Positions 1 through 28,468 of a DNA stretch of 64,000 bases are shown piece by piece. The notes below the pieces were generated by a model. That model was given only the letters and a program-made list of their open reading frames with translations, ran no database searches and was not told the origin of the DNA. The stretch comes from an uncultured bacterium. GTDB taxonomy: Bacteria; Acidobacteriota; Thermoanaerobaculia; Multivoradales; JAHZIX01. Numbering within the stretch: position 1 is the first letter of the stretch; each line of letters starts with the position of its first letter. The translations under genes were made by a program, and so were the position numbers. The stretch spans positions 96,001 to 160,000 of the forward strand of contig CBDUPA010000013.1 of assembly GCA_965368975.1 (NCBI GenBank), read 5' to 3'.

Positions 1-2
1 TA

Positions 3-1226
3 GCCCTCGAGCGACTCTCCTCGCCCGAGCAGCTCGACCAGCTGCTGCAGGTGACCCATCCGCGCGGTTGGCTGGCCCTTGGTGCGCTCGGAGCCCTGCT
101 GCTCGCCGCGCTAGTCTGGGGCTTCTTCGGTTCCATCCCTACCGTCGCCGCGGGCGAGGGAATTCTGCTGCGCCAGGGAGGCGTATCGAACGTCGTTGCC
201 ACCGGCCAAGGGCAAGTGGAAGAGATCCTGGTGAGCGTCGGGCAAAGCGTGGCCAAAGACCAGGTGGTGGCGCGCGTGCGGCAGGAGGCGCTCTTGCGTC
301 AGATCCAGGACACCGAAGACCGGGCCGAGGACCAGCGCCAGGAGAACGAGCGCCTACGCCAGCTGGCCGACGAGCGCCAGCGCCTGACGACGCGCAACCT
401 ACAGCAGCAACGCGTCAACCTGGAACGCAGCATCGAGACCCTGAATACCGAAATCTCGTTGATCCGAGAGCGCCTGGATGCCGAGCAAGAACTCCTGCGT
501 GACGGCCTGGTCACCAAACAGACCGTGCTGGCCAGCGAGCAAGCGCTGAATGCGGCACGCGACCGCCGAGACCGCCTGCAACAAGAACTGGCAGGCCTCG
601 ACCTGACGCGCCTAGAGACCCGTCAGAGCCTCGACCAACAGCAAGAAACGGCCGAGAACCTCCTGCGCGACCTACAACTCGAGATCCGCGAGTTGCAGGC
701 ACGGCTCGAAGAAGAGTCCGCGATCCGCTCACCGTTCGAAGGACGTGTCCTAGAGCTGGCAGTGGATCGCGGCGACGTCGTAGCCCCCGGCACCTCGCTG
801 CTGAGTCTCGAGCTCACCTCCGAAGAGCTAGTGGCGGTGCTCTTCATCCCCGCCGACACGGGTAAGAAGGTGCAACCCGGCATGAAGGTGCAGATTGCAC
901 CGACCATGGTCAAGCGCGAAGAATATGGCTTCATCTACGGTGAAGTGACCTGGGTCGCTGAGTTTCCTTCCACCGCCCGCGGCATGCTGCGCCTGCTGGC
1001 CAACCAGGAGCTGGTGACCCGCCTGCTGGCGCAAGGGCCTCCGATCCAGGTCGACGTGCGCTTGCAGACGGCGGCCAACTCCCCCACCGGCTACGCGTGG
1101 TCCTCGGGAGACGGCCCCAACCTGGAGATCACCAGTGGCACGCTGGCCACCGGCAGCGTCATCGCCGAGCAGAAACGCCCGATCAGCCTGGTGATCCCCG
1201 AGGTCAAGTCGAGGCTGGGTCTGTGA
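3..1226 (+). CDS. NHLP/NHLM bacteriocin system secretion protein (HlyD-family adaptor), 5'-partial
   Basis: Frame is open from base 3 (ALERLSSPEQLDQLLQVTH..., the characteristic N-terminal motif of this family). TM segment, long coiled coil, lipoyl-like halves and C-terminal 'RPISLVIP'; lies next to two ABC genes. Confidence 0.9.
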   Translation, partial: ALERLSSPEQLDQLLQVTHPRGWLALGALGALLLAALVWGFFGSIPTVAAGEGILLRQGGVSNVVATGQGQVEEILVSVGQSVAKDQVVARVRQEALLRQIQDTEDRAEDQRQENERLRQLADERQRLTTRNLQQQRVNLERSIETLNTEISLIRERLDAEQELLRDGLVTKQTVLASEQALNAARDRRDRLQQELAGLDLTRLETRQSLDQQQETAENLLRDLQLEIRELQARLEEESAIRSPFEGRVLELAVDRGDVVAPGTSLLSLELTSEELVAVLFIPADTGKKVQPGMKVQIAPTMVKREEYGFIYGEVTWVAEFPSTARGMLRLLANQELVTRLLAQGPPIQVDVRLQTAANSPTGYAWSSGDGPNLEITSGTLATGSVIAEQKRPISLVIPEVKSRLGL

Positions 1227-1269
1227 TGTGGCGTTGGCAGCTCCTTGACGACGCGGAGCGTGCGCACCG

Positions 1270-3537
1270 GTGATCGCCCGAGCGAAAGCCCTGCTGGCCA
1301 AGCTGCGCGCCTGGTGGACCCAGGACCGGCGGCGTGCCAAGACGCCCACCGTGCTGCAAATGGAAGCCGTCGAATGCGGTGCCGCGTCGCTTGGCATCAT
1401 CCTGGCTTACTTCGGTCGCTGGGTACCCCTGGAAGAACTGCGCAGCGCCTGCGGCGTGTCGCGCGACGGCAGCAAGGCCTCCAACATGCTCAAAGCGGCA
1501 CGCCGCTACGGCCTCGAAGCCAAGGGCTTCAAGACAGAGCCCGCGGGGCTGCGCAAGTTCGAGCCACCGCTGATCCTGCACTGGAACTTCAACCACTTCT
1601 TGGTCCTCGAAGGTTTCGATCGCGAGCGCGTCTACCTCAACGACCCCGGCAGTGGTCCGCGCACTGTCACGCACCAGGAGCTGGATGAGAGCTTCACCGG
1701 CGTCGTGCTGCAATGCAAGCGCGGCGAAGCCTTCCAGGCCGAGGGCACGCCGCCGAGCCTGATCCCGGCCTTGGCGCGCCGCTTGCGTGGCAGTACCGCG
1801 GCGCTCGTCTTCGTGCTGCTGGCCGGGCTCGCGCTGGTGATCCCAACCTTGGTGACCCCGGCCTTCTCCCGCGTCTTCATCGATGCCGTGCTGCTCGATG
1901 CGCGCATCGGCTGGGTCAAGCCGCTGCTGCTGGCCATGACGCTGACCGCATTGATGCTGGCTGCGCTCACCTGGCTGCAGCAGAACTACCTGCTGCGCCT
2001 GGAAACCCGCATGGCGGTGACCGGTTCGGGACGTTTTCTGTGGCATGTGCTGCGCCTGCCGATCGAGTTCTTCACCCAGCGCTTTGCTGGCGACATCAGC
2101 TCGCGCGTGATCATCAACGACCGGGTGGCTCAGCTGCTGTCTCGCGACCTGGCGCGCAACTTCCTCGGCTGCCTGATGATCTTTTTCTTCCTGCTGGTGC
2201 TGCTGCGTTACGACGTCCTGCTGACGCTGGTGGGCCTTGCGGTGGTGTCCCTCAACGTCGTGGCGCTGCGTTTCGTCTCGCGCAAGCGTGTCGATGGCAA
2301 CCGGCGCCTGCTGATGGACAAGGGCAAGATGCACGGTACCGCCATCGGTGGCTTGCAGATGATCGAGACGCTGAAAGCGACCGGTGGTGAAGACGACCTG
2401 TACCACCGCTGGTCCGGCTACCAGGCCAAGGTGGTCAACACGCGCCAGGAGCTGGAGCAGTACACGCAGTACCTGGATGCCGTGCCTCCCCTGCTCGGTG
2501 CGCTCAATACAGCGGCGATCCTCGGCCTGGGCAGCCTACGCGTGATGAGCGGCGCCCTGACGCTGGGCGAACTGATCGCCTTCCAGGTGTTGATGGCCAG
2601 CTTCGTGGCACCGGTCAACCAATTGGTCAATCTGGGCGCGCAGCTGCAGATGGTCGAAGGCGACATGAACCGCCTCGATGACGTCCTGCGCTACCGCATC
2701 GACGAGGGCGTCGCCGAAGCTCACGCCGCTCCCCCAGCCGCCGCGGAGGCGGCGGCCAGCACCCCATTTGCTGAAGAGCCAGCCGCCGAGGAGGCGGCCG
2801 GCGATACCGCCGTCAAGCTGCAAGGCCGCCTCGAGCTACGTGGCGTGACCTTTGGCTACAGCCGGCTCTCACCACCTCTGATCCAAGACTTCGACCTCGT
2901 GCTCGAACCCGGCTCGCGCGTCGCCCTGGTCGGGACCTCTGGCAGTGGGAAATCCACCATCGCCAAGCTGGTGACCGGGCTCTACAGTCCGTGGAGCGGC
3001 GAGATTCTCTTCGATGGCCAGACACGCTCCGAAGTCGACCCAAGGGTCTTGACCAACTCCATGGCGACTGTCGACCAGAGCATCTCCATGTTCGAGGGCA
3101 GCGTGCGCGAGAACCTCACCCTGTGGGACGACTCGCTGCCACAACCCGAGGTCGTGGCGGCCGCTAAAGATGCAGCGATCCACGACGATATCGCCGCCCG
3201 CCCCGGGGGCTACGAGAGCAAGATCGACGAAGGAGGTCAGAACTTCAGCGGCGGCCAGAAACAGCGCCTCGAGATCGCCCGTGCTCTGGTCGGCCGCCCA
3301 TCGCTACTGGTGCTCGACGAAGCCACCAGCGCCCTCGATCCGACGACCGAAGAAGAAATCGACCGCAACCTGCGCCGCCGCGGCTGTACCTGCCTGATCA
3401 TCGCCCACCGCCTGAGTACCATTCGCGACGCCGATGAGATTCTCGTCTTGTCGGACGGCAAGGTGGTCCAGCGTGGCAGCCACGACGAGCTGATCGAGCA
3501 GGACGGCCCCTACGTGCACCTGATCGAGGAGGCGTGA
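1270..3537 (+). CDS. NHLP-family export ABC transporter, C39 peptidase/permease/ATPase
   Basis: C39 motifs QMEAVECGAASL and HWNFNHF; TM domain; Walker A GTSGSGKST, signature FSGGQKQR, Walker B LVLDEATSALD. Confidence 0.93.
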   Translation: MIARAKALLAKLRAWWTQDRRRAKTPTVLQMEAVECGAASLGIILAYFGRWVPLEELRSACGVSRDGSKASNMLKAARRYGLEAKGFKTEPAGLRKFEPPLILHWNFNHFLVLEGFDRERVYLNDPGSGPRTVTHQELDESFTGVVLQCKRGEAFQAEGTPPSLIPALARRLRGSTAALVFVLLAGLALVIPTLVTPAFSRVFIDAVLLDARIGWVKPLLLAMTLTALMLAALTWLQQNYLLRLETRMAVTGSGRFLWHVLRLPIEFFTQRFAGDISSRVIINDRVAQLLSRDLARNFLGCLMIFFFLLVLLRYDVLLTLVGLAVVSLNVVALRFVSRKRVDGNRRLLMDKGKMHGTAIGGLQMIETLKATGGEDDLYHRWSGYQAKVVNTRQELEQYTQYLDAVPPLLGALNTAAILGLGSLRVMSGALTLGELIAFQVLMASFVAPVNQLVNLGAQLQMVEGDMNRLDDVLRYRIDEGVAEAHAAPPAAAEAAASTPFAEEPAAEEAAGDTAVKLQGRLELRGVTFGYSRLSPPLIQDFDLVLEPGSRVALVGTSGSGKSTIAKLVTGLYSPWSGEILFDGQTRSEVDPRVLTNSMATVDQSISMFEGSVRENLTLWDDSLPQPEVVAAAKDAAIHDDIAARPGGYESKIDEGGQNFSGGQKQRLEIARALVGRPSLLVLDEATSALDPTTEEEIDRNLRRRGCTCLIIAHRLSTIRDADEILVLSDGKVVQRGSHDELIEQDGPYVHLIEEA

Positions 3538-6500
3538 AGATGAGTTCACGCCCGGATCCACGGCTGATCGCCCGCCTCGAGCCGCTCGCCGAAGTCGTCA
3601 CGCCGACCGCCAATCGTCCCTTTGAATTGCATCCCGAGGAGCAAGCCTGGTTGATCGTCGCCGGCAGCGTCGATGTTTTCTACCGACGCACGATCCCAGG
3701 CGAAGGGGCGAACACCACCGGGCGACGCAGTCACCTGGGCACTGCCGGCGTCGGCGACGTGCTCTTCGGCTTCGCGCCCGCCTCTGGTTCGAGCTCCGGC
3801 TTGCACTTCTTGGCCACCGGTAACGAAGGCGCCCGCTTGCTGCGCGTTCCGCTGGCGTCGCTGGTTGCCCTGGCCCGCGACCCCGAATTGCTGCCGTGGC
3901 TCGCGGCGGCGGTCGAGAGCTGGGTCTGCTGGCTGCTGCAGCGCTGCGAAAAACCGGCACCACCGCAGAAGTTCGATCTCCTCGCGGCGAGTGCCGAACT
4001 GTCCCCGCAACCTGGTGCCGCCGTGCGTCCAGAGGGCGATGTCGTCTGGTTCCGCCTGCTGGCCGGTAGCTGTTCCCTGCTGGGCGAGGACGAATTGAGC
4101 TTGCGACCCACCAGCTACTTGCTCCCCCTGGCAGCTGACTGCTGGCTCCGCTGTGCCGATTCGGCAATCGAGGTCGCCCCCCGAGCCGGTGTCCCCACCG
4201 AGAGCCATGCCGTGGACAGAGCAGCGACAGAAGAAGCGCCACACGAGGGCCAGGACGAGACGCCGGCGATCGGCGCCGTACTGTCCGGCGTTGGCACTCA
4301 GATCCTGCTGCGCAGCGGCGCCTTGTGGGAAGCCCTGCTGCAGTACCACCACCTGTGCCTACGCTACCTGGCACTGGAACTCGCACGCGCCGAGCAACGA
4401 GAACGCCAACGACTGGATGTGCAGCGGCGACGCGACCAGCAGACCTTTGAGCAGGCGCACCAGCGTCTGGCCTCGGTACTCGGAAGCTCGGCTCCCAGCC
4501 CTGACGCCATCCCTGGCGGCGATGCCGCGCCCAGGCACATGGCTGAGGACCACGATCCTCGCTCCGACGACCTGTTGGCCGCGGCTTGCCGGCTGGTCTT
4601 CGACGAGCAGGGCCTGGAGTTCCAGGCACCAGCACCACACGCCAGTCGCTCGCGCGACCCGGTGGCGCGCTTCGCCGCCGCCGCGCACTTGCGTCATCGT
4701 CGCGTCCTGCTGCGCGACGACTGGTGGCAGCGTGACAACGGCCCACTGCTCGCATTTCGCCTGCCTGCAGGCTCGGGCCCAGGGAGTTCCCCGCAGATGG
4801 GCACTCCCGTCGCTCTGCTGCCGCTATCCCCCACACGCTATGAGATGGTCGACCCGCGCACCGGCAGCCGGCAGATCGTCGACGCTGAGGTGGCAGAAAC
4901 CCTGCAGGGTACAGCGGTGATGTTCTACCCGCCGCTGCCCGACCGGGCAGTGACGCCACTCGATCTGCTCCGCCTGGCGCTGCGTGGACGCCAACAGGAT
5001 CTAAGGATGCTCATCTTGATGGGCATCGGTGGCGGCGTCCTCGCCATGCTGACACCCGTGCTCACCGGCCAGATCGTCGGTCGTGTCATCCCTGAGGCCA
5101 ACCGCTCCCTGCTGCTGCAGATGGGGCTGGCCCTGACCTTCGCCGCGCTGGCCGCCGCCGCCTTCCAGATCACCCGTGGTATCGCCGTGCTGCGCCTGGG
5201 CGGCAAGATCGACGGCACCGTCCAGGCCGCGGTCTGGGATCGCTTGCTCGCCTTGCCTCTGACCTTCTTCCGCCGGTTCTCCGTCGGCGACCTGGCGGCG
5301 CGCTCACTCGGTATCGACACCATGCGCGAAATGCTCACCGGCAACGTGACGACCTCTCTGCTCGCCGCGGTCTTCTCCGGCTTCAGCTTCGCGCTACTCT
5401 TCTACTACAACTGGCGCCTGGCTCTGTTCGCCAGTGGCCTGGTCTTGACGCTGATGCTGGTCACCATCACCCTCACCTGGCTGCAGTTGCGTCACCAGCG
5501 GGCCCTGCTGCGCCTGCAAGGACGCCTGGAAAGCCTCCTGTTCGCGCTCATCTCCGGCATTTCCAAGCTACGCGTCGCGGGCGCCGAACCCCGTGCCTTC
5601 GCCCTCTGGGCCGAGTACTTCACCCAGCAGCGCCAACGGGCGATCCAGGCCCGCTCGATCGCCAACATCCAGGCCGCTTTCAACGCTGCCTACGGCGTCC
5701 TGACGTCGCTCGGTATCTTCGCCATGGTTGCCCTGTCGACCTACGTCGAGCTGTCGATCTCGGACTTCATCGCCTTCAACGCCGCCTACGGTCAATTCCA
5801 GGCCGCCGCTCTGTCGGTCACCGGCCTGCTGTCGTCCCTGATCGCGCTGGTGCCGATCTATGAGCGCGCCAGACCGATCCTCGACACCGTGCCCGAAGTC
5901 GATGCCACCAAGGCGGACGCGGGCGAGCTGCGCGGAGAGCTAGAGTTCAGCCACGTCTCTTTTCGCTACCGTCCGGACGGACCGCTGATCCTGGACGACG
6001 TCTCGTTGCGTGCCAGCCCCGGCGAGTTCATCGCCCTGGTCGGCCCCTCGGGCTCGGGCAAGTCGACCTGCCTGCGCTTGGTGCTCGGCTTCGAAGAACC
6101 CGCCGCCGGCTCGATCTACTTCGACGGCCAAGATCTACCGTCTCTCGACATCCAGAGCGTCCGGCGCCAGATCGGCGTCGTGCTGCAATCCAGCCAACCG
6201 ATGCCGGGCAGCATCTTCAGCAACATCGTCGGCGGCTCCAACCTGACCTTCGACGATGCCTGGGCGGCCGCCGAGATGGCCGGGCTGGCCAAGGACATCA
6301 AGCAGATGCCGATGGGCATGCACACGATCGTCAGCGAGGGCGGATCGACCTTCTCTGGTGGTCAGAAACAGCGCCTGCTGATTGCCCGTGCCCTCGTCCA
6401 CCGGCCGCGCATCCTGCTGTTCGACGAGGCAACCTCGGCACTCGACAACCGAACACAAGAGGTGGTCAGCCGCAGCCTCGAACGGCTCAAAGCGACGCGC

Positions 6501-6650
6501 GTGGTCGTCGCGCACCGCCTCAGCACCATCCGCAACGCGGACCGCATCTACGTGCTCGAACGCGGCCACATCACCGAGCACGGTAACTACGACGAGCTGA
6601 TGCAGATGGATGGCGCCTTCGCGCGCCTGGCGCGCCGGCAGCTGACCTGA
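3534..6650 (+). CDS. NHLP-family export ABC transporter permease/ATPase (second subunit, no catalytic peptidase Cys)
   Basis: GTGA overlap with upstream gene; 'RRVLLRDDWWQRDNGPLLAF' motif typical of this subunit; GPSGSGKST, FSGGQKQR, LLFDEATSALD. Confidence 0.9.
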   Translation: MKMSSRPDPRLIARLEPLAEVVTPTANRPFELHPEEQAWLIVAGSVDVFYRRTIPGEGANTTGRRSHLGTAGVGDVLFGFAPASGSSSGLHFLATGNEGARLLRVPLASLVALARDPELLPWLAAAVESWVCWLLQRCEKPAPPQKFDLLAASAELSPQPGAAVRPEGDVVWFRLLAGSCSLLGEDELSLRPTSYLLPLAADCWLRCADSAIEVAPRAGVPTESHAVDRAATEEAPHEGQDETPAIGAVLSGVGTQILLRSGALWEALLQYHHLCLRYLALELARAEQRERQRLDVQRRRDQQTFEQAHQRLASVLGSSAPSPDAIPGGDAAPRHMAEDHDPRSDDLLAAACRLVFDEQGLEFQAPAPHASRSRDPVARFAAAAHLRHRRVLLRDDWWQRDNGPLLAFRLPAGSGPGSSPQMGTPVALLPLSPTRYEMVDPRTGSRQIVDAEVAETLQGTAVMFYPPLPDRAVTPLDLLRLALRGRQQDLRMLILMGIGGGVLAMLTPVLTGQIVGRVIPEANRSLLLQMGLALTFAALAAAAFQITRGIAVLRLGGKIDGTVQAAVWDRLLALPLTFFRRFSVGDLAARSLGIDTMREMLTGNVTTSLLAAVFSGFSFALLFYYNWRLALFASGLVLTLMLVTITLTWLQLRHQRALLRLQGRLESLLFALISGISKLRVAGAEPRAFALWAEYFTQQRQRAIQARSIANIQAAFNAAYGVLTSLGIFAMVALSTYVELSISDFIAFNAAYGQFQAAALSVTGLLSSLIALVPIYERARPILDTVPEVDATKADAGELRGELEFSHVSFRYRPDGPLILDDVSLRASPGEFIALVGPSGSGKSTCLRLVLGFEEPAAGSIYFDGQDLPSLDIQSVRRQIGVVLQSSQPMPGSIFSNIVGGSNLTFDDAWAAAEMAGLAKDIKQMPMGMHTIVSEGGSTFSGGQKQRLLIARALVHRPRILLFDEATSALDNRTQEVVSRSLERLKATRVVVAHRLSTIRNADRIYVLERGHITEHGNYDELMQMDGAFARLARRQLT

Positions 6651-6672: not shown

Positions 6673-9600
6673 ATGCAATGCACCCAGTGCCAGTTCGACA
6701 ACCCGCCGGGCATGAAGTTCTGCGGCCAGTGCGGTCAGCCGCTGCCCCGAGCCTGTCCGCAGTGCGGAACCCCCGTGGTCGCCGGTTTCAAATTCTGCGG
6801 CGAGTGCGGCACGCCCCTGTCGACGGACACGCCGGCCGTCGCTCCAGGAGCCGCCACGCCAGCCGCCACGCCGGCCGTCGCTGCAGCCACAGTCGCACCA
6901 GCCCGCGCCCCGAATCACAGCGAACGTGCCCCGATGCACAGCGAAGGTGTCCCGACGCACAGTGAACGCAAACCGGCGACCGTCCTGGCCTGCGAGCTGG
7001 TCGCGGACGGTGGCGGCCACGTCGACGCGGAGGACCTGCACAGCCGCCTGAACCGTTTCCTCGACCTGGCACGCGAAGAGATCCGTCGCTATGAGGGCAC
7101 CCTCGGGCACTTCGGGGCACGAGGCTTCCTGGCACTCTTCGGGGCACCGATCGCCCACGAGGACCACGCGCAGCGCGCAGCCCTGACCGCATTGGCACTG
7201 CAACGCCTGATCCTCGACCACCGCGACGAGTTCCGCACCGCTGCTGGCGTCCAGTTGAGTATCCGTATCGGACTCGACACGGGCGAAGTCGTGGTTGGCG
7301 GTAGCGGTGATCTGGCGGTCGGCGACGCCATCGACCATGCCGAAGAACTCCGGCGGTGCGCCGATGGTGGGCAGATCCGCCTCAGCTCCGCTACGGCCCT
7401 GCTGGTCGCGGACGAAGTCGAGGTCATTCCTCTCGACGGCGACAACGGTGACGTCTTCGAGTTGCACCACGGCGATCCCGAGGCCACCGAGACCGACGAG
7501 TTCCGAGGCACCCTGAGCCCCTTCGTCGGTCGCCGGCGCGAACTCGACGTGCTCGAAGAACTGCGTGAACTCGCCGCCGCCAGCCAAGGCCAGATCGTCG
7601 GCGTCAGCGGCGAAGCCGGGGCCGGCAAGTCGCGGCTGATGCACGAGTTCCGCAAGCGCTTGCAGGGGCAGCGCATTAGCTACCTGCTCGGTCAGTGCCG
7701 CTCGTACGGCCCAGGCATCCCGTACCTCCCCCTCCAGGACATGGTACGCCGCGGCTCACACATCGCGCGCGGCGACGATTCCGCGACCCTGACCCAAAAG
7801 CTACGCGGCAGCCTGGAGAACCTGGGTGTCGATCTCGAGCAGGATCTCCCCCCCTTGCTGCAGCTGCTCGGAGTCGAGGCGGGAACCGAGAGCCTGCAAG
7901 GCCTCGAGCCGCAGGCCTTGCGGCAGCGTCAGTTCGCCGCCATGCGCCGCATGCTGCTCCAGGCCAGCCGCGGTTCCCTGGTCGTCATCGTGCTCGAAGA
8001 CCTGCACTGGATCGACAGCACGTCCGAAGAGTTCCTCGCCTCCATCGTCGAGGGTATGGCGGCCAGCCGCATCCTGCTCCTACTCACCTATCGCTCCGGC
8101 TACCAGCCACCGTGGATGGACCGCTCCTATGCCACGCAGATCCCCATGCGCCGACTGTCAGTACAGCACAGTCGCGAGATCCTCGCCGCCATGCTGCGGC
8201 GCAGTGGCCTACCGGATGCTGACGTCGCGGCCCTGGATAACAGCTCCGTCCTCGACAAGGCCGAGGGCAACCCCTTCTTTCTCGAAGAGCTGGCGCGCGC
8301 CCTGGCCGAACGTGCCAGCCAAGCGCCGGGCCAGACCGGTCCGCCCGTGCCAGACACCATCCAGGGCGTCCTGATGGCGCGCATCGACCGCCTGCCCGAA
8401 CGCCACAAGCATCTATTGCAGACAGCCTCTGTCCTCGGTCGCGAGTTCAGCGGCGAGTTGCTGCAAGGCGTCTGGGGCGGCGAGAGCGGTGATGCCAGCA
8501 GCAAGGCCGAAGAGACGCTGCAAGAGTTGCAGCGCTGGGAATTCCTGCACCGCCTACCAACGACGCCCGCCAGCTTCGCCTTCCGGCATGCGCTGACCCA
8601 GGAAGTGGCCTACCAGAGCCTGCTCAACGAACGCCGCCAGGCGCTGCACGCCCGTGCCGCGAGCGTCCTCGAAGGACTCCATGCCGACCACCCCGAAGCC
8701 GCCTACGACCGCCTCGCCTACCACTACCCACGCGCTGGCAATGCGCAGAAGACCGTGCACTACCTATCGCTCTTCGCTCGCCACGCCGCCAGCACTTATG
8801 CCCACGCCGAGGCAGTCACCGCGCTCACCGAGGCTCTCGGCTACGCCGAACGTCTGCCGGCCGAGGAACGCGATCGTCGATCCCTCGAACTGCTGCTCGA
8901 CCTGGTCAGCTCGCTGTTCCCGCTCGCTCGCTTCCCGCAGAGTCTCGAGGTGCTCGAGCAGCACCGTCAACGTCTCGACCAGGTCGACGATGCGGGCCTC
9001 CACGGACGCTTCCACTTCTGGCTCGCCCACACGCACACCTACCTCGGTGATTCCGAGGCCGCCACCGAGCATGCACAGCTGGCCATCAAGGCCGCGCGCC
9101 GAGCTGGCGACGAGGCGACCGAGGGCAAGGCCCACTACGTCCTCGGCCGCGACGGTTTCTGGGCCGGTCACCTCGAAGAAGGCTTGGAGCACAGCCTCCG
9201 TGCCATCGTCTTGCTGGAGCGCAACGACGAGCCCTGGTGGCAAGGCCAAGCGCATTGGGTCGCCGGCTACCACCACTTCCTGCTCGGGCACGCTGACGAG
9301 GCCCTGGCCGAGATGGCGCGCGCAGGTCGCATCGGCGAAGCCCTCGACGACTCCCGCCTCGACACCTCGTGGTCCACCGGTTTCTTCCACGCCGCCCTCG
9401 GCGATGCCGACCGCGGCATCGAGTTGTGCCAGCAAGGCGTCGAACGCTCCCAGGATCCGCTCAACACCGCAGCGTCCCTCGGCTTCCTCGGCTACGCCTA
9501 CCTGCAGCAGGGCGACCTCGGGCGTGCCGTCGATACCCTGCGAGATTCCATCCATCGCCTGGAAGCTGCAGGCATGCTGCAGTTGTGGGGCTGGTTCCAG

Positions 9601-16081: not shown

Positions 16082-16093
16082 GGCGCAGGAATC

Positions 16094-16885: not shown

Positions 16886-16905
16886 GGCGCTATCATACAG
16901 GCTTC

Positions 16906-19318: not shown

Positions 19319-19367
19319 ACACAGAGACGGCGGAGAGCGGGAGTCTCCCTCTCCGCCGTCTCTGTGT
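19319..19367 (+). terminator. Perfect 19-bp stem-loop between precursors and maturase genes
   Basis: acacagagacggcggagag-N11-ctctccgccgtctctgtgt, followed by tcacgtttt. Confidence 0.75.
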
Positions 19368-20544: not shown

Positions 20545-20762
20545 ACGAGCACGACGATGCACGCGCCTTCTTCCGCAGACTGAGCCCGCAGGCACAGGAA
20601 GAGGCGTCGATCCCCTATCGCTTCGCGGAGTTGCGCCGCCCCGAAGCCGTGGCGGTGCAACGCGTAGCGCAGAGTGACCACTATCGCAGCGACGCCTTCG
20701 AGTGCCGTGCCTTCCACAAGCCGATCTCCCGATGCTTTCCGCCCGTGGAGGAACCAGCATGA
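20541..20762 (+). CDS. Small hypothetical protein (73 aa) coupled between gwsG and gwsS
   Basis: ATGA overlaps at both ends (20541-20544 and 20759-20762). Confidence 0.65.
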   Translation: MNEHDDARAFFRRLSPQAQEEASIPYRFAELRRPEAVAVQRVAQSDHYRSDAFECRAFHKPISRCFPPVEEPA

Positions 20763-21830: not shown

Positions 21831-23012
21831 TCAGCAAATGGCGTGCTGCCCTGTCCGTTCCTGCGCCCCTGAGGTGCGGATCCCATCGTCACCGTTCGCT
21901 TCCAGATCGTATTGGCGAATCTTGTTGAACAGCGTCTTGCGGCTGATTCCCAGGCTCTCGGCCGTGGCAGTGCGGTTCCCGTGGTAGATCAAGAGTCGAG
22001 ACAGAATCATCTGCTTCTCCACCTGCTCGGTCGCCTGCCCGACGGCCTCGGCCAGCGTCATCCGGTCCAACCGTTCGACCGATAGCCGGCCTTCGATCTT
22101 GCTGTGCCAGGCTGCCGAGATCGGCTTCTCAGGCTCGAGCAAACGTGCCGGCAAGTCCTCCTCCTGGAGGACGTCGGCGCTCGCCAGGACCATCGAGCGA
22201 CACAGAGTGTTCTCTAGCTCCCGTACGTTCCCCGGCCAGTCGTGGCGCACCAGGACGCGCATCGCCTCCGGGGTGATTCCCCGTATGCTCAAGCCGAGCT
22301 GGCGATTGATCTTGCTGACCAGGTAATTGCACAGCAAGGGAATGTCCTGGCGCCGCTCGCGCAGGGGCGGCAGCTCGACGTGCACCACGTTGAGCCTCCA
22401 GTACAGGTCATCCCGGAATCGCCCCTCGGCGACCTCCTGTTCGAGATTCTTGTTGGTCGCGGCCACCAGACGAACATCGACATCCCGCGGCTCACGCGCG
22501 CCGACCGGCGTATAGCGCCGCTCCTGCAGCACGCGCAAGAGCTTGGCCTGGGCATCAATCGCCAGATCTCCGACCTCGTCGAGGAAGAGAGTCCCGTGAT
22601 CAGCCTGCTCGAAGCGCCCGATGCGACTGTCTCGAGCGTCCGTGAAAGCGCCCTGGATGTGGCCGAAGAACTCACTCTCGACCAGGTTCTGCGGAATCGC
22701 GCTGCAATTGACCGCTACGAACGGACCGGCCACCCGCAAGCTGCCGCAGTGCAACGTCCGAGCCACCAGTTCCTTGCCGGTGCCCGACTCGCCGGTCACC
22801 AAGACCGTAGCGTCGACCCTGGCCACCTTGCTGACCGTGGCCAGCACCTGCTGGATCCCCGGACTGCGCCCGATCATCTGCGTCTCCTGCTGGCCGCAGT
22901 CCTGACGGCTGGGGCGCTGGCGGGGCGCCGGGGAAGCCTCGGACGAGGGCACCACCGAAGCGATGCCGGTTCGGCGGACTGAGGATCGATCCGCAACGGC
23001 TGAGGGAAGCAT
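21831..23012 (-). CDS. Sigma-54 enhancer-binding protein (AAA+ and Fis HTH) without a recognisable regulatory domain
   Basis: GESGTGKELVA, GAFTDA, LFLDEVGDL, FRDDLYWRLNVV, WPGNVRELEN, HTH 'GNRTATAESLGISRKTLFNKI'. GGAGGT RBS before ATG 23012. Confidence 0.9.
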   Translation of the reverse strand: MLPSAVADRSSVRRTGIASVVPSSEASPAPRQRPSRQDCGQQETQMIGRSPGIQQVLATVSKVARVDATVLVTGESGTGKELVARTLHCGSLRVAGPFVAVNCSAIPQNLVESEFFGHIQGAFTDARDSRIGRFEQADHGTLFLDEVGDLAIDAQAKLLRVLQERRYTPVGAREPRDVDVRLVAATNKNLEQEVAEGRFRDDLYWRLNVVHVELPPLRERRQDIPLLCNYLVSKINRQLGLSIRGITPEAMRVLVRHDWPGNVRELENTLCRSMVLASADVLQEEDLPARLLEPEKPISAAWHSKIEGRLSVERLDRMTLAEAVGQATEQVEKQMILSRLLIYHGNRTATAESLGISRKTLFNKIRQYDLEANGDDGIRTSGAQERTGQHAIC

Positions 23013-23141
23013 CGTTCTCACCTCCATCCATTCGTCCAGGTAGACGAGGTGTCCTAGCGCTTCACGTCTTCTAGGAGTTGCGCTGCCCCATGGAGCGCCT
23101 CCTACTCATCTAGTATACGCCTTCCGATTGCCGGCGCCAGT

Positions 23142-24059
23142 TCAAGACCTCGGCTTGCGAATCCGAGCGACCAGACCGTCTTGCAGCTTTACCCCAGAAG
23201 CTGCGGGCTCGAGTTCTGCCTCTACAAACACCAGTTGCGAGGCCGCGTCGACCTGGGGCGCGATCTGCGACACCGTGCCACGCAGCGTCAAATCCATGCC
23301 TTCCAGCGAGGCTTCAACGCGGTCGCCTGCCTGCAGGTGGCTGACGACCTGCGGCGGAACCGCGAAACGCAAGACGAAGTCGTCCGAAGCGATGAGCCGA
23401 AGCACGGGCGTGCCAGGGTGAACCTGGGCCCCGGGATCCAGGAAGCGGGCCGCAATGCGGCCGTCGATCGGGGCGCGCAGCACCGAGCGCTGGAGCCGGT
23501 TCTCCAGTTGCAGCACGTAGGCCGCCTGCTCAGCGACGCGGGCGCGGGCACTCTCGACGTCGGCCACTGCCATATCTCGCTCGCTGTGGCTGCTCTCCAA
23601 TTCTTCCTGCGCGAAGAGATCCGGCATCGTTCGGCGTCGGCGCAGCTGCTCCTCGGCTCGGCGCAACTCGACCTCGGCGCGGCGCACGTCGGCTGCCGCT
23701 GCTTGACGACTGGCCTGAGCTCGGGCCAGATCTTGCGTCAGCTCCTGGGTTTCCAGGCGGGCCAACGGCTGCCCCGTCAGCACCGCATCCCCGACCCGCA
23801 CGGCCACTTCGGCAAGCGTGCCGTCGACCTCGGCGCCCAGGTCGACAGCCTGCCGTGCTACCACCACGCCGATCCAGCGCCCCTGCTCCGGCTCTGCCGC
23901 GGTGCCCACACCTTCGACCTCTTGCCCGGGAAGCGTGGAGCTTGCAAGCGGCGCTGGTCCCCCATCGTCGGGCACCGGCTCGGCAGAGCATCCGGCAAGA
24001 CCGCTCAGAGCGCTGAGCAGACTGAGAACCACAACGAGAAAGCCTTTTCTTGCAGGCAT
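23142..24059 (-). CDS. Efflux membrane-fusion (periplasmic adaptor) lipoprotein
   Basis: Start at ATG 24059 gives a signal peptide with lipobox LAG-C; lipoyl half 'V.VRVGDAV..GQPLARL'; coiled coil; 'LRAPIDGRI'. Confidence 0.8.
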   Translation of the reverse strand: MPARKGFLVVVLSLLSALSGLAGCSAEPVPDDGGPAPLASSTLPGQEVEGVGTAAEPEQGRWIGVVVARQAVDLGAEVDGTLAEVAVRVGDAVLTGQPLARLETQELTQDLARAQASRQAAAADVRRAEVELRRAEEQLRRRRTMPDLFAQEELESSHSERDMAVADVESARARVAEQAAYVLQLENRLQRSVLRAPIDGRIAARFLDPGAQVHPGTPVLRLIASDDFVLRFAVPPQVVSHLQAGDRVEASLEGMDLTLRGTVSQIAPQVDAASQLVFVEAELEPAASGVKLQDGLVARIRKPRS

Positions 24060-24170
24060 TTGCGTCCCTCTCTCTCGGCGCGGTAGCGGTTGACGCTCAA
24101 CGCTGGTGGTTGATACCGTGAGTCCAGGTGCCATGTTGCAAGCCGGGTCCATCACCTGGGGAGGTACAAC

Positions 24171-26156
24171 GTGAACGCCGCATCAACAACTGTACCAGTT
24201 CCCACCTTGCTGCTGGGCTTTCCAGCACCGCTGCGGCATCAGCTCGTCGACGCACTCGCAGGCCTCGTCGAAGACCTGCAAGCCAGCCCCCAGGCGGCAG
24301 ACGACCGGGCTCCGGCGTTGGTCTGCCTCGGACCGGAGTTGCCGGGGTCGCAGGCAGCGACCTGGCTGGAGCATTCGTTGCCACCGCCGGCGGTGACGTC
24401 GGCGGTTGGCACGTCGGCGGTTGGCACGTCGGCAGTAGGTCAACCGTTGGTTCTCGTACTCGCCGGCGGCGACGATCTCAGCCTTTTTCAGCCCTGGCTC
24501 GACGCCGATCAGCTCTACTACTTGAGCCCAGGGCCGCCACCGCCAGCGCAGCTCACGGCCCTCCTACGGAGCGCGGCGCAGCATTGCCGTGCCGCCACCC
24601 GGATGGCCGCAGGTATGGCACCTTCCGCTGCCCTCTCCGGCCCCCCGGCCACGGGTCTGACGCAGCCGGCAGTACAGCAAGCGCTTCGCCGCCTGGGTTT
24701 GCAGGATGATCCAGGCGATGGAGCCGAATTGCTGTCCGAAGCCGTCCGAGAGAGCGTTCGCGCCGATGGCGGTGTCTGCTGGCTGCACGACACCCGCGAT
24801 CAGAGCTTGTGGACACGCGACAGCAGCAGCGGTGGCGAACGCCGCCACAGCGCCAGTGTCGGCCTGACCAGCTTCGTCCTGCGCAGTGGTCTGGCCCTGT
24901 CTCTGCGACGCTCGAGCGAGGATCAGCGCTTCGACCCGGAAGCCGATGCTGTGGTGCTGCACTCAGGGCCCGCGGCCGTCAGCGAGGAGGACGCGGCAGA
25001 CCGATGGCTCGCCGTGCCGGTCAGGGCGCCGGCGGCAGACGGCGAGATCCACGGGCCCGTGATCGCCGTGCTGGTTGCCCAGCGCCACGGCAATCGTGCT
25101 GCCTTCAACCCTCACGACCAGCGAGTGCTGGAGCAGCTGGCGACGGCCGCGGCTCCCCACGTACTGGCCCTGGTCGAAGGCGATGCCACGCCCGAGCTCG
25201 AGGTCCCCCAGGCGGCCGCCGACCTGTTCCGCCGCGAGGCCCTGCGCGACTCGCTCCTGGGCCACGAGAGTGCTCGCGATCCGCTAATGCTGTCCCCGAC
25301 CTGGACACGCTGGTCCTACCGCCTGCTGGTGGCGGCGCTCGGTGCGGCGTTGCTGTTCTCGCTCGTCTTCGAGGTCGGCGAGTATGCCCGCGGTATCGCC
25401 GTGATCACCCTCGGCGGCCGTACCGACCTGACCGCCGTCGCCGCCGGAACCGCACAAGCCGTCGAAGTCGAACCCGGAGACGCGGTATCGGCCGGCCAGG
25501 TGCTGGTGCGGTTCTATGAGGCCGGCGAGCTGGCCGAGCTGGAGCGTATCGACCGCGAGATCGAGCTGCACCTGATCAACCGCCTACGCTTTCCCGCGGA
25601 TCCAGCCTCGGAGCAAGCTCTGCTGTCCCTGCGAGCGCAGCGTGAGCTGGCCACGGCACGCCTCGAGGAGCGCTCGCTCCGCGCCCCGGTGAGCGGCAGG
25701 ATCAGCGACCTGCGCGTGCGGGCCGGCCAGTACCTGACGCCCGGGCAACTCCTGCTGTCCGTGCTCCACGAAGATAGCGTGCCGAAGGCGGTCATTCTGC
25801 TACCTGGCGAGTACCGACCGCTGGTGCAAGAGGGGATGCGCGTGCGCCTGGAGATCTCCGGATACAACTATGCCTACCAGCTGCTGGACGTTGAGCAGGT
25901 GAGCGAGAACGTCGTCGGTCCGAACGAAGCTCGGCGCTACCTGAGCGAGGGCGTCGCCGACACGGTTCGTGTGCCGGGGCCCGTCGTCCTGCTCGAGGCC
26001 GCTTTGCCCTCGCTGACCTTCCAGGCTGACGGCGACATCTACCAGTACCACAACGGCATGCTCGGAACCGCCGAGGTTCGCGTACGGTCCGAGAAAATCC
26101 TGTTCACCCTCGTGCCCGGACTGAAAGCCGCGCTCACTTTCGCCAACGGGAGCTGA
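24171..26156 (+). CDS. GAF-domain / HlyD-family secretion adaptor fusion
   Basis: GAF-like segment (GLTSFVLRSG...DQRFDPEAD...WLAVPV...VIAVLVA...AFNPHDQRVLEQLA), then 'LFRREAL', TM helix, lipoyl/coiled coil and C-terminal 'GMLGTAEVRVRSEKILFTLVPGLK'. Confidence 0.8.
   Translation: MNAASTTVPVPTLLLGFPAPLRHQLVDALAGLVEDLQASPQAADDRAPALVCLGPELPGSQAATWLEHSLPPPAVTSAVGTSAVGTSAVGQPLVLVLAGGDDLSLFQPWLDADQLYYLSPGPPPPAQLTALLRSAAQHCRAATRMAAGMAPSAALSGPPATGLTQPAVQQALRRLGLQDDPGDGAELLSEAVRESVRADGGVCWLHDTRDQSLWTRDSSSGGERRHSASVGLTSFVLRSGLALSLRRSSEDQRFDPEADAVVLHSGPAAVSEEDAADRWLAVPVRAPAADGEIHGPVIAVLVAQRHGNRAAFNPHDQRVLEQLATAAAPHVLALVEGDATPELEVPQAAADLFRREALRDSLLGHESARDPLMLSPTWTRWSYRLLVAALGAALLFSLVFEVGEYARGIAVITLGGRTDLTAVAAGTAQAVEVEPGDAVSAGQVLVRFYEAGELAELERIDREIELHLINRLRFPADPASEQALLSLRAQRELATARLEERSLRAPVSGRISDLRVRAGQYLTPGQLLLSVLHEDSVPKAVILLPGEYRPLVQEGMRVRLEISGYNYAYQLLDVEQVSENVVGPNEARRYLSEGVADTVRVPGPVVLLEAALPSLTFQADGDIYQYHNGMLGTAEVRVRSEKILFTLVPGLKAALTFANGS
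24396..24440 (+). repeat. 15-nt tandem repeat x3 (TSAVG)
   Basis: acgtcggcggttggc x2 plus acgtcggcagtaggt. Confidence 0.7.
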
Positions 26157-26158
26157 AC

Positions 26159-28468
26159 ATGCGCGACGCCGACAACCACGACAGCGGCAGGAACCCCGAA
26201 CACAGGGGCGGTACCGAGCCCACTGACGCGAGCGACAGCCTGCCGCTGTGGCAACGCTGGCCCGCCTTCCTCGGCGTCGACCTGTTGCGGCGACGCGCCA
26301 AACTGCGCTTCGTACAGCAAACTGCCGCCACGGACTGTGGCGCGGCCTGCCTGGCCATGGTGCTCAGCTACCACGGCAAGAACCTGCGTCTCAATGAGGT
26401 CCGCGAGGTCATGAGCGTCAGCCGCATGGGTGTCGACGCCTTCACCATCTTGGAAACCGGCCGCCACTTCGGTCTGCGTGGCCGTGCCCTCAAAGTGCGT
26501 GAGGTCGCGCACCTGCGCTATCTCGACCCGGGTGCCGTGCTGCACTGGCGGTTCAATCACTTCGTGGTTCTCGAACGCATCGAGAAGCGCGGCGCCTGGG
26601 TCGTCGATCCCGCCGTCGGCCGGCGCCTGATCCCATGGCCCGAACTGGGTCGTGCCTTCACCGGCGTCGCCCTGGTGTTCGAAACTAGCGAGGACTTCGA
26701 ACCTCTGCCGGCGGACCAGAAAGGCGTCTGGCGGTACCTGCGCCAGTTGCTCAGCCAGAGCGGCCTGCTCACCCGTATCTTGGTGACGTCCCTGCTGATC
26801 CAGCTGCTGGCACTGTCGGTGCCGGTGCTCACGGGCCTACTGGTCGACCGCGTGGTGCCACGTGGTGACCACAACCTGCTGCTGGTCCTGGTGGCCGGAG
26901 CCGCCGGCATCGTCGGCTTCAAGCTGCTCGCCGGCCTGGTGCGCTCCTTCCTCCTGCTCTTCCTGCGCACCCGTCTGGACGCCCGCATGACCGTGCAGTT
27001 CCTGGAGCATCTGGTTGCGCTGCCCTACCTGTTTTTCCAGCAGCGTTCCTCGGGCGATCTGATGATGCGCCTGAACAGCAACGCGGTGGTGCGCGAGATC
27101 CTCACTTCTGGCGCCATCTCGGGCATCTTCGACGGCGCCATGGTCTCTCTCTACCTCTTGCTGCTGCTGGCCGCCAACACCAAGATAGGGCTGGTGGTAG
27201 CCTTGCTCGGCCTGCTCCAAGTAGCTGTCTTCCTGGTGACTCGCAAACGCCAAGCCGAGCTGATGACCGAGACCCTGCAGACGCAGGCCGACGCCCGTGG
27301 CTTCGAGGTCCAGTTGCTGTCCGGCATCGAGACCCTGAAGTCGAGCGGCGCGGAGTTCCGCGCCGTCGAGCGCTGGTCGCACCTCTTCGTGCGCGAGCTC
27401 AACGTCTCGCTCGACCGCGGCCGGCTGGATGCCGGTGTCAACTCCGTGCTCGACGCCCTGGCCACCGGCGCACCGCTAGCCGTGCTGCTCTACGGTAGCC
27501 ACCTGGTGCTCGCCGGCGAACTCACCCTCGGCACCATGCTGGCGCTCAGCGCTCTGGCCCAGGGCTTCCTGGGCCCGCTGGCGACCCTGGTTCACACCTC
27601 CTTCCAACTGCAGCTTCTGGGTAGCTACCTGGAACGCCTCAACGACGTGCTGGAGACGCCGCGCGAACAGGAGAGTACCGAGAAGCGCATCGATGTCGGC
27701 GCCCTGCGTGGCCAGGTACGGGTCGACGAGGTGAGCTTCCGCTATGCTCCGATGGCGGCGCCCGCGGTTGCTGGAGTCAGCCTGGACATCCGTCCGGGAC
27801 AGCTGGTCGCCCTGGTCGGTTCTTCAGGCTCCGGCAAGTCGACCCTCGCCGGCCTGCTCGCCGGTCTCTACCGCCCAGACAGCGGCCGTATCCTGTTCGA
27901 CGGCCTGAGCTTGGCCGAGGCCGACTTGCGCCAGCTGCGCGGCCAGCTCGGTTTCGTGCCGCAGCACAGCTTCCTCTTCGGCATGAGCGTGCGCGCCAAC
28001 ATCGCGCTCAACGACCCGTCCCTGCCCCTCTCCCGGATCATCGAAGCGGCGCGCATGGCACAGATCCACGACGACATCTTGACCATGCCCATGGGCTATG
28101 AATCCCTGCTCGCCGATGGTGGCGCCTCGCTCTCCGGCGGCCAGCGCCAGCGGCTGGCGCTGGCCCGCGCCCTGGTACACCGCCCCAAGGTGTTGATTCT
28201 CGACGAGGCCACTAGCGCCCTGGATGCGGTCACCGAGGCGAGGATCCAGCAGAACCTGGCGCGCCTACGCTGCACCCGCATCGTCGTCGCGCATCGCCTG
28301 AGCACCATCCGTGACGCCAACCGCATCGTGGTCCTCGATCGTGGTCACTTGATCGAACACGGCAGCCACGACGAGCTCATGGCAGCACGAGGCAAGTATC
28401 ATGAGCTGGTCACGGCGCAACTACAGAAGAGCCAGGCCGCCACAATCGCCCCAGAATTGACCCCTTGA
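26159..28468 (+). CDS. Peptidase-containing ABC transporter (C39 PCAT)
   Basis: QQTAATDCGAACLAMVL, LHWRFNHFVV, VVDPAVG; GSSGSGKST, LSGGQRQR, LILDEATSALD. Confidence 0.93.
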   Translation: MRDADNHDSGRNPEHRGGTEPTDASDSLPLWQRWPAFLGVDLLRRRAKLRFVQQTAATDCGAACLAMVLSYHGKNLRLNEVREVMSVSRMGVDAFTILETGRHFGLRGRALKVREVAHLRYLDPGAVLHWRFNHFVVLERIEKRGAWVVDPAVGRRLIPWPELGRAFTGVALVFETSEDFEPLPADQKGVWRYLRQLLSQSGLLTRILVTSLLIQLLALSVPVLTGLLVDRVVPRGDHNLLLVLVAGAAGIVGFKLLAGLVRSFLLLFLRTRLDARMTVQFLEHLVALPYLFFQQRSSGDLMMRLNSNAVVREILTSGAISGIFDGAMVSLYLLLLLAANTKIGLVVALLGLLQVAVFLVTRKRQAELMTETLQTQADARGFEVQLLSGIETLKSSGAEFRAVERWSHLFVRELNVSLDRGRLDAGVNSVLDALATGAPLAVLLYGSHLVLAGELTLGTMLALSALAQGFLGPLATLVHTSFQLQLLGSYLERLNDVLETPREQESTEKRIDVGALRGQVRVDEVSFRYAPMAAPAVAGVSLDIRPGQLVALVGSSGSGKSTLAGLLAGLYRPDSGRILFDGLSLAEADLRQLRGQLGFVPQHSFLFGMSVRANIALNDPSLPLSRIIEAARMAQIHDDILTMPMGYESLLADGGASLSGGQRQRLALARALVHRPKVLILDEATSALDAVTEARIQQNLARLRCTRIVVAHRLSTIRDANRIVVLDRGHLIEHGSHDELMAARGKYHELVTAQLQKSQAATIAPELTP

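Follow-up and report, generated by a model that had tools for sequence, protein, structure and literature searches.

This work concerns a 64,000-nucleotide stretch of the genome of an uncultured acidobacterium (Thermoanaerobaculia, Multivoradales, JAHZIX01; GenBank assembly GCA_965368975.1, contig CBDUPA010000013.1, positions 96,001 to 160,000 of the forward strand, i.e., G000:C13:96001-160000), hereafter called the window, whose positions 1-28468 hold two neighbouring clusters for exported modified peptides that are split by a block of housekeeping genes. Cluster A begins some 2 kb before base 1 and ends near 13.2 kb, and cluster B extends from 18.55 to 28.5 kb. The reading that we consider probable is that both clusters are independent of each other, cluster A being built around a barrel-fold enzyme which would prenylate a tryptophan (Trp) of its precursor peptides and carrying a docked radical S-adenosylmethionine (SAM) cassette, and cluster B being a graspetide cluster with an exporter of its own. 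Several of the components are of already known kinds, namely the NHLP export system, the grasp-with-spasm system and the radical SAM/SPASM maturases; what stands out is the combination of a Trp-first precursor with a family-less barrel enzyme, a regulator and an exporter. Literature searches retrieved no such combination of Trp-first peptides and a barrel prenyltransferase from Acidobacteriota; supplementary lists (e.g., the mined clusters of PMC12715784) could hold such a family.

Distributed over both clusters, six small genes encode precursor peptides with a Gly-Gly (GG) leader:

10751-10894, minus strand: P1, 47 amino acids (aa)
10927-11076, minus strand: P2, 49 aa
13017-13151, plus strand: P3, 44 aa when read from ATG, 46 aa when read from the TTG at 13011
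18684-18839, plus strand: P4, 51 aa, 117 nucleotides (nt) downstream of a sigma-54-type promoter candidate
18895-19059, plus strand: P5, 54 aa
19145-19303, plus strand: P6, 52 aa

A first-pass annotation, made from the sequence alone, had claimed six genes of 44-54 aa with ribosome-binding sites and AGG motifs, and all of them are present at these sizes: by eye, a purine-rich, Shine-Dalgarno-like stretch was identified 5-10 nt upstream of the ATG in all six, and all six leaders end with A-G-G, preceded by a hydrophobic residue at position -4 and a Leu about 12 residues upstream. Homologous precursors adjoin homologous enzymes in other genomes, which holds for all three groups of precursors. 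That the small open reading frames (ORFs) are chance frames in GC-rich DNA was rejected in view of this conservation and of the synonymous-only differences between two of the cores, which are described below for P4 and P6. The GC content at third codon positions (GC3) of P1, P2, P4, P5 and P6 amounts to 0.73-0.85, as compared to 0.72-0.87 for the neighbour genes, and that of P3 (0.58) is close to that of the neighbouring radical SAM gene (0.57). The same annotation had regarded the six genes as hidden, which holds true solely for the ORF track it worked with, because public annotations call all six and their exact sequences are already part of the public protein collection (NCBI, ENA, Logan). 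It had also suggested looking for more precursors upstream of base 1; in the 10 kb upstream the GG-leader ORF pattern returned none, and the genes found there encode the TolC-like protein as well as one DUF7005 and one DUF4132 protein.

P1 and P2 adjoin the gene of the barrel enzyme:

9699-10754, minus strand: enzyme of 351 aa with predicted alpha-beta-beta-alpha (ABBA) fold, prenyltransferase-like; the TTG start overlaps the P1 stop codon
11127-11100, minus strand: sigma-70-like promoter candidate before P2

P1 possesses a short, acidic leader which ends with L-x4-L..V-A-G-G, and its core opens with Trp followed by a Gly/Thr-rich tail; P2 is of the same type, Trp opening its core too, and both cores are devoid of Cys. 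For the 351-aa enzyme, neither Pfam nor NCBIfam returned a match. A word-indexed search identified 22 relatives, all annotated as 'hypothetical', and a HMMER search with the alignment of these relatives retrieved 4109 cluster representatives at E<=1e-3, of which 1598 also pass E<=1e-30, hence the family is a large one. The AlphaFold2 model (pLDDT 87.9, pTM 0.88) predicts a ten-strand barrel made up of five alpha-beta-beta-alpha repeats. Foldseek comparison with the PDB yielded 59 matches at E<=1e-3, and all matches listed are ABBA aromatic prenyltransferases (IptA, PriB, NphB/Orf2, CloQ, 5- and 6-DMATS, AmbP1/3, EpzP and DMATS1), whereby the bacterial indole prenyltransferases IptA and PriB came out on top (E ~1e-6, best 9.7e-7; TM 0.42-0.47). 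Within the family alignment 17 columns are invariant, including E94, D96, Y164, R171, R177, R285, H289, K291, K303 and Y305; the invariant residues are mostly i/i+2 spaced on predicted strands, and when placed on these strands their pattern fits a charged barrel lumen. The last 21 residues of the enzyme are unconserved and modelled with low confidence. Among 10 long relatives that were scanned, three are fused to CMAS-type SAM methyltransferases and one, from a Gemmatimonadaceae metagenome-assembled genome (MAG), to a squalene-hopene-cyclase C domain above cut-off, with one more carrying this domain below cut-off (fusion proteins P0133, P0144, P0148, P0149 and P0137); the other five (567-732 aa) contain no recognisable second domain, the barrel occurring twice in two of them. 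Concerning the start of the protein, the TTG that overlaps the P1 stop codon was identified as the true one, because the alignments with homologues begin at about residue 8-15 of the long ORF. A public call of the same protein (P0001, 298 aa) starts at residue 54 of the ORF and is probably truncated at its N-terminus, since the 53 residues before it, with strand 1 and the preceding helix, are used by homologues and model alike.

The pairing of this enzyme with Trp precursors was followed over 45 homologue loci, of which 16 came from a genome search with 1.5-kb flanks and 29 from named contigs (7-row alignment). At 35 of the 45 loci a GG-leader ORF lies on the strand of the enzyme gene, no more than 1.5 kb upstream of it, and Trp is present in 33 of the 35 cores that were picked automatically. 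The two remaining picks (L059 and L082) are spurious ORFs that overlap the enzyme start, the real precursors of these loci being of the Nif11 type with Trp at core position 4. After this correction exactly one Trp is found in 34/35 cores; it resides within the first five residues in 33/35 and opens the core, like that of P1 and P2, in 13/35, and the rest of the core comprises 6-28 residues that are rich in Pro and Gly. A predicted complex of the enzyme with P1 obtained a score of 0.74, as compared to 0.02 for the best of 3 controls; this mark was reached by 58/80 solved complexes and by 2/110 mismatched pairs, counts that apply approximately here, since the prediction was made with a custom alignment. 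At least 71% of the contacts are common to the runs, with a partner pLDDT of at least 57. On the side of P1 the predicted interface is formed by residues 18-22 and 24-36, i.e., the L-x4-L motif, the GG and core residues 1-5 including Trp, and on the side of the enzyme by strand residues and the C-terminal helix. The complex model supports the binding of P1 by the enzyme, and the 351-aa protein is most likely a leader-dependent prenyltransferase for the precursor Trp. In the suggested mechanism, the enzyme would bind the L-x4-L...A-G-G end of the leader and prenylate the indole of the Trp that forms the first core residue; subsequent cleavage would free a short linear peptide whose N-terminal Trp is lipidated, and this product may be an antibiotic-like lipopeptide or a ComX-like signal. 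If true, enzyme and precursor would constitute a compact two-gene tool to lipidate the N-terminal residue of a peptide. As for transcription, the scans for sigma-70 promoters and for terminators did not overall rise above shuffles, with the positions of three sites being suggestive.

The proposed enzyme resembles recently described lanthipeptide prenyltransferases, but comes without a lanthionine synthetase. MppC is a barrel prenyltransferase that strictly requires the leader and attaches a geranyl group to one Trp of a Nif11-leader lanthipeptide (PMC12715784), and NctPC, following the available part of PMC13290415, is a terpene-cyclase fusion which geranylgeranylates Trp in a ribosomal peptide. 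Compared by description and not by sequence, MppC (Moorena mpp cluster), NctPC and the window enzyme have in common an ABBA barrel beside a GG-type (Nif11/NHLP) precursor with a short Trp core. The contact between the leader L-x4-L and the C-terminal helix of the enzyme that was described for MppC (PMC12715784) is the same as predicted for the window enzyme, and the terpene-cyclase fusion of NctPC recurs in some relatives of the latter. Whereas the substrates of MppC and NctPC are lanthipeptides, P1 and P2 possess no Cys, and neither a DUF4135 nor a LANC_like domain was detected among the large ORFs between 1 and 31 kb of the window, so that the substrate would be linear. Further differences are that Trp is the first core residue and that the window system belongs to Acidobacteriota, where a STAND/TPR regulator (at 20 of the 29 named loci) and often also an NHLP exporter accompany it. 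Because P1 and P2 are free of Cys and the class II lanthionine synthetase LanM is missing nearby, the window enzyme may represent a lanthionine-independent branch of the same enzyme kind. If such linear Trp-first peptides are prenylated, leader-dependent prenylation reaches beyond lanthipeptides and cyanobacteria into Acidobacteriota.

The lanthionine-dependent counterpart is likely present in the same genome:

G000:C13:209613-210643 and G000:C18:1-3796 (L028, L053): paralogue cluster, the paralogue of the barrel enzyme being split by contig ends

Two precursors precede this paralogue, scoring 61 bits with the type-2 lantibiotic leader model (vs. 23.5) and carrying Trp between Cys and Ser, and a class II lanthionine synthetase (DUF4135 and LANC_like) follows it. 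This is likely a prenylated lanthipeptide cluster, with the same gene layout as the mpp cluster (PMC12715784). LanM also flanks loci with Cys and Thr in their Trp-first cores (L010, L063, L069 and L077), and it flanks the Cys-free locus of genome G001 (L015). At L085 (G001:C128, 5415-9027) LanM lies directly upstream of a Trp-first precursor with a Cys-free core, where it either serves only the two Cys-rich precursors further upstream or dehydrates without ring formation.

The expected product is comparable to those of ComX/ComQ from Bacillus and of PalQ, which are referred to here as far as the available parts of the respective sources describe them: in all cases a short ribosomal peptide carries one prenylated Trp, here an N-terminal one, and PalQ likewise acts on a terminal Trp. 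Unlike the window enzyme, which is modelled as an alpha/beta barrel, ComQ and PalQ are all-helical and of the trans-isoprenyl-diphosphate-synthase type. The ComX system employs a ComP-type kinase, whereas the neighbour regulator of the window enzyme is a STAND/TPR protein and not a kinase of that type.

Several points weigh against a prenyltransferase function. Even at E<=10, none of the 22 aligned family members matched Pfam, a profile search against PDB sequences gave 0 matches at E<=10, and neither the enzyme nor its aligned relatives were found by sequence to belong to PTase_Orf2, Trp_DMAT or the cyanobactin-type enzymes; because a sequence link to a solved structure or to Pfam is lacking, the assignment rests on the predicted fold and the gene context. 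The fold matches are moderate, with TM values of 0.36-0.47, root-mean-square deviations of 6.6-10 A and 9-16% identity. Moreover, the GG-leader scan (1.5 kb, same strand) returned no upstream precursor for 10/45 loci, i.e., for L012, L019, L021, L022, L023 and L029 (more distant members with 1.5-kb flanks), L070 (694 nt available), L074 and two Polyangium loci; at L074 the precursor is positioned downstream of the enzyme, and at the two Polyangium loci no GG-leader precursor was found near the gene. Since the loci are kin and overlap between the collections (one precursor is shared by L011 and L068), their counts overstate independence. Finally, the score of the predicted complex possibly reflects likeness to known enzyme-leader complexes, and MppC needs the Nif11 domain (PMC12715784), which is not part of the short P1 and P2 leaders (12 bits for P1, none for P2).

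Considering these points, the alternative that survives best assumes a function other than prenyl transfer for the 351-aa barrel protein, which would be a leader-binding scaffold or chaperone for the Trp peptides, or an enzyme that introduces another Trp modification or uses another electrophile. It would be in line with the lack of sequence similarity to any characterised prenyltransferase, with TM-scores that are all below 0.5, and with a low protein-atlas recognition value (1198), the nearest clusters being all 'hypothetical'. We nevertheless hold it to be unlikely, as every listed fold match is an ABBA prenyltransferase and as the 17 invariant columns (among them Glu, Asp, Tyr, Arg, His and Lys located on strands of the barrel) speak for catalysis. 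In addition, the fusions to terpene-cyclase-type domains and olefin-type methyltransferases point to isoprenoid chemistry, and the cyclase-fused NctPC, as described in the part of PMC13290415 referred to above, is a Trp geranylgeranylating enzyme. A leader-dependent Trp prenyltransferase hence stays the most likely assignment. With it, the three maturase types that had been named at first pass, including the prenyltransferase as a guess, are recovered as a radical SAM/SPASM enzyme, an ATP-grasp/SPASM pair and an ABBA-fold model.

The enzyme and its precursors are preceded by export and regulatory genes:

Directly upstream of the window (L055:7950-9917): TolC-like outer-membrane gene, PF02321 OEP match
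1-1226 (5' end at or just before base 1), plus strand: HlyD-type adaptor of the NHLP system, TIGR03794 370 bits vs. cut-off 156
1270-3537, plus strand: C39-peptidase/permease/ATPase (NHLM_micro_ABC1), TIGR03796 1094 bits vs. 853, Peptidase_C39 E 1.7e-32
3534-6650, plus strand: peptidase-less ATP-binding cassette (ABC) subunit (NHLM_micro_ABC2), TIGR03797 922 bits vs. 709, residues 346-1037
6673-9777, plus strand: zinc-ribbon/cyclase-like/AAA_16 (STAND)/TPR regulator, Pfam DZR, AAA_16 and TPR, Guanylate_cyc just under cut-off

By means of the TolC-like protein, the HlyD adaptor, the C39-ABC protein and the second ABC subunit, the leader would be cut after Gly-Gly and the core exported. The two C39-peptidase ABC systems that had been reported within 28 kb are both supported by domain matches (1270-3537 and, in cluster B, 26159-28468), and with three C39 domains in the whole genome, two of three are found in this window. 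In both domains Cys, His and Asp sit, by eye, at positions which we take to be the catalytic ones of C39 peptidases. The NHLP/Nif11 export families were reportedly described by Haft, Basu and Mitchell in 2010, including the sharing of one C39 exporter across unrelated maturase classes. As in the NHLP/Nif11 system, all three transport components of cluster A score above the curated cut-offs. The window system differs from it in that its leaders are short and below the Nif11/NHLP cut-offs: P1 obtained 12.1 bits with TIGR03798 (vs. 32.3), and a family scan gave no TIGR03798 match for P2 and P3. The Trp precursors of relatives are Nif11-type in three of four tested cases (53.3, 42.7 and 53.4 bits), the fourth one (L015, from the same family as G000) having a short leader like P1 and P2. 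A further difference is the additional 345-aa N-terminal extension of ABC2 (3534-4568), which lies outside of the TIGR03797 model and has no Pfam match; it appears to be conserved, given that tblastn alignments of the 1038-aa query span 1018 and 1006 columns in the genomes G007 and G025.

The genes of the regulator and the barrel enzyme are convergent and their 3' ends overlap by 79 nt (9699-9777). A convergent regulator homologue just downstream of the prenyltransferase-like gene is what was counted above for the named loci, and it is found as well in G001, G006, G010, G015 and G017. One could go further and assume that the module of exporter, regulator, barrel enzyme and Trp precursor is a cell-to-cell signalling system of Acidobacteriota, in which short linear prenyl-Trp peptides (6-17 residues in relatives) would be analogous to ComX but made by an enzyme of unrelated fold, the TPR regulator would serve as receptor, and docked cassettes (radical SAM, LanM, graspetide) would be controlled and exported as cargo; we regard this as speculative and rather improbable.

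The block consisting of HlyD, C39-ABC1, ABC2, regulator, convergent enzyme and Trp precursor is kept in G001, G006, G010 (C43) and G017, with ABC1 being 64-69% identical; G015 holds the same genes spread over 30 kb and G003 the exporter alone. What lies beyond the Trp precursor varies: it is LanM with two Cys-rich precursors in G001, a Cys/Trp precursor in G006, two Cys precursors in G017, a Cys-rich precursor in G010, and in the genome of the window (G000) a radical SAM cassette with a Cys core. The latter is composed of P3 and the following features:

11465-12916, plus strand: radical SAM/SPASM peptide maturase, PF04055, CxxxCxxC at Cys136
13156-13171: terminator-like hairpin after P3

P3 combines its GG leader with a 16-aa core which contains two Cys as well as Asn/Thr. 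The best NCBIfam match of the radical SAM protein is TIGR04463 with 203 bits vs. a cut-off of 525, and all 25 families listed (of 63 matched) stay below their cut-offs. With the maturases of the TIGR04463, CefB, FlmE/OhkG and PapB types it shares CxxxCxxC, a SPASM region and a short GG-leader precursor with Cys and Asn/Thr; it is distinguished from them by lying far below every curated cut-off and belongs to none of these families. The base composition of the radical SAM gene and P3 (GC 0.52 and 0.48, GC3 0.57 and 0.58) deviates from that of the neighbours (GC 0.62-0.68, GC3 0.72-0.87), and this foreign composition fits a recent acquisition of both as one unit. Orthologues with 51-54% identity were identified in G007 and G025, each followed downstream by a Cys/Asn-rich GG-leader precursor of its own. 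The horizontally acquired pair would have docked beside the P2-P1-enzyme operon and would share the exporter of cluster A, the radical SAM enzyme making thioether cross-links in the P3 core.

The location of the radical SAM cassette differs between genomes, being between regulator and enzyme in G007 and between regulator and exporter in G025, where no prenyltransferase-like gene is found. At two loci (L060 and L062) grasp-with-spasm genes stand beside the module of regulator and prenyltransferase-like gene. The first-pass annotation had suggested that cassettes are swapped next to a constant exporter and had named synteny as the check. Synteny supports this cassette idea for cluster A only, where the next cassette varies; the exporter is indeed kept, but the constant part also includes the regulator, the prenyltransferase-like enzyme and the Trp precursor. 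A constant regulator and exporter with varying cassettes at one site amounts to natural plug-in peptide biosynthesis.

Cluster B follows the housekeeping block and comprises, in addition to P4, P5 and P6:

18553-18567, plus strand: sigma-54-type -24/-12 promoter candidate, TGGCAC-N5-TTGA, the sole match in the 64-kb window
19319-19367: inverted repeat after P6 with 24-nt arms
19477-20544, plus strand: ATP-grasp peptide maturase (grasp-with-spasm), TIGR04192 282 bits vs. 230, MvdD pre-ATP-grasp domain
20541-20762, plus strand: seventh small gene, 73 aa, joined by ATGA overlaps to the ATP-grasp gene as well as to the SPASM gene; two Cys close to the C-terminus are conserved
20759-21793, plus strand (ORF opens at 20702, likely start ATG at 20759): SPASM-domain maturase (grasp-with-spasm), TIGR04193 336 bits vs. 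175
21831-23027, minus strand: sigma-54-dependent activator without receiver domain, Sigma54_activat E 4.4e-69, HTH_8
23142-24155, minus strand: HlyD-type adaptor
24171-26156, plus strand: GAF-HlyD fusion
26159-28468, plus strand: second C39-peptidase ABC exporter, Peptidase_C39 E 7.6e-29, TIGR03796 632 bits, below the cut-off of 853

P4 is of the graspetide type, its MKKL... leader ending with M-V-A-G-G and its core being rich in Thr/Ser, Asp/Glu and Lys; P5 belongs to the same leader family with a different core, and the core of P6 is identical to that of P4. Overall P4 and P6 differ by 10 synonymous and 4 non-synonymous codons, which divide into 5 synonymous and 0 non-synonymous differences in the cores and 5 synonymous and 4 non-synonymous ones in the leaders. 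This pattern speaks for purifying selection. P4 and P6 are old duplicates, the 60 nt upstream of both genes being identical at just 16/60 positions. The sigma-54-type promoter would drive P4-P5-P6, and the hairpin after P6 would favour precursor over enzyme transcripts. Two findings speak against this promoter assignment: the motif occurred somewhere in the window in 32/100 shuffles, and before the precursors of G010 none was found in the right orientation. The ATP-grasp, 73-aa and SPASM genes would be translationally coupled, with the ATP-grasp enzyme forming side-chain ester or amide rings, and the sigma-54 activator, two HlyD adaptors and the separate C39-ABC exporter would complete the cluster.

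The SPASM protein contains no CxxxCxxC motif, and the P4-P6 cores contain no Cys. The 73-aa gene had not been listed by the first-pass annotation. Its product has no Pfam/NCBIfam match, and a homologue at the same position in G010 (35% identity, E 4e-10) keeps the Cys-containing C-terminal motif. G010 harbours the same pair of maturase genes (57% and 43% identity), directly followed by C39-ABC and HlyD genes and preceded by two precursors of the same leader family. According to the available parts of the respective texts, the grasp-with-spasm system (TIGR04192/TIGR04193) is equivalent to the 'branch 5' of PMC8939145 and the SPASM-associated 'group 14' of PMC13097080. As far as it is described there, the window cluster agrees with this system in that both enzymes score above cut-off, that several GG-leader precursors of the type MKK(x)L... 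carry cores with Thr/Ser and Asp/Glu, that the SPASM gene is directly preceded by a small gene, and that C39-ABC and HlyD genes are nearby. For branch 5, PMC8939145 mentions in its available part an 'LPL family' of small proteins upstream of SPASM genes; the 73-aa gene takes the same position, the likeness being one of position alone. The window cluster differs from this branch, as depicted in the same portion of that source, by its Cys-free cores and its acidobacterial origin, branch 5 being said to be highly specific to Bacteroides. A characterised product of this graspetide branch was not found in the portions of PMC8939145 and PMC13097080 that were available. With its Cys-free cores and its conserved small protein, cluster B offers a tractable entry to the branch.

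The first-pass annotation had proposed a single modular hub of three cassettes that plug into shared export, i.e., one integrated unit in which either C39 exporter is used interchangeably. The three cassettes exist, and the idea of one hub could draw on the fact that all six leaders end with A-G-G and carry an upstream L/M-x4-L/M, on the presence of two of the genome's three C39 domains in this region, and on L060 and L062 with their grasp-with-spasm genes beside regulator and prenyltransferase-like module. Furthermore, export in trans must be common, because other GG-leader candidates of the genome are without a local C39 exporter. It is opposed by the 5-kb housekeeping block including uvrB, which divides the region into two halves (13311-18420), and by the presence of an own exporter in each half. 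In G010 the grasp-with-spasm pair stands directly beside its own C39-ABC and HlyD genes, and the P4-P6 leaders form a family apart from P1-P3 that is common to the G010 precursors. Moreover, the block conserved in relatives consists of cluster A genes only. One hub with interchangeable exporters is accordingly judged quite unlikely, and two independent clusters are preferred. Least probable of all is that the clustering is functionally meaningless, the radical SAM cassette and the grasp-with-spasm genes being chance mobile insertions near uvrB and the peptides being processed independently of the neighbour exporter: the foreign GC of the radical SAM cassette and the patchiness of the cassettes in five same-family genomes (prenyltransferase-like gene in 1/5, radical SAM in 1/5 with 37% identity, grasp-with-spasm match at cut-off in 0/5) are in its favour, but G007, G025 and L059 likewise hold the radical SAM cassette next to this NHLP exporter and regulator, in differing arrangements, and GG leaders need a C39-type peptidase, of which the genome has three only.

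Beyond the window, all six frames of the genome were searched with a relaxed leader pattern, which matched 178 times. In 78 of these cases no more than 80 residues follow the GG; this set includes the six peptides and about 10 more plausible precursors on the contigs C1, C7, C10, C13 and C16. Examples are:

C1:253148-253279: plausible GG-leader precursor
C7:132659-132760: plausible GG-leader precursor
C10:200942-201127: plausible GG-leader precursor
C10:228913-229005: plausible GG-leader precursor
C16:363-615: plausible GG-leader precursor

These candidates on C1, C7, C10 and C16 lie on contigs without any C39 domain, and the one on C7 is located just upstream of two ATP-grasp genes.

The genome itself comprises 7.1 Mb in 59 contigs and is 99.3% complete. 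The relatives that share the genes discussed here are Acidobacteriota, mostly Thermoanaerobaculia. The remaining features of the window are:

13311-18420: housekeeping block with DUF2071, UvrB, epimerase and MBOAT genes
After the second C39-ABC gene (26159-28468): two AlgX-like genes

The UvrB of one Acidobacteriota MAG (L075) is 78% identical to that of the window. From 31 kb on, the scanned ORFs are housekeeping genes, among them those for methylmalonyl-CoA mutase, NusA, IF-2 and PNPase. The GC content of the window is about 0.65 and falls to 0.56-0.60 at 10-14 kb and at 18-20 kb, and the highest AT skew of the window (0.30) is located at 44001-46000, within the IF-2 gene (44594-47308).

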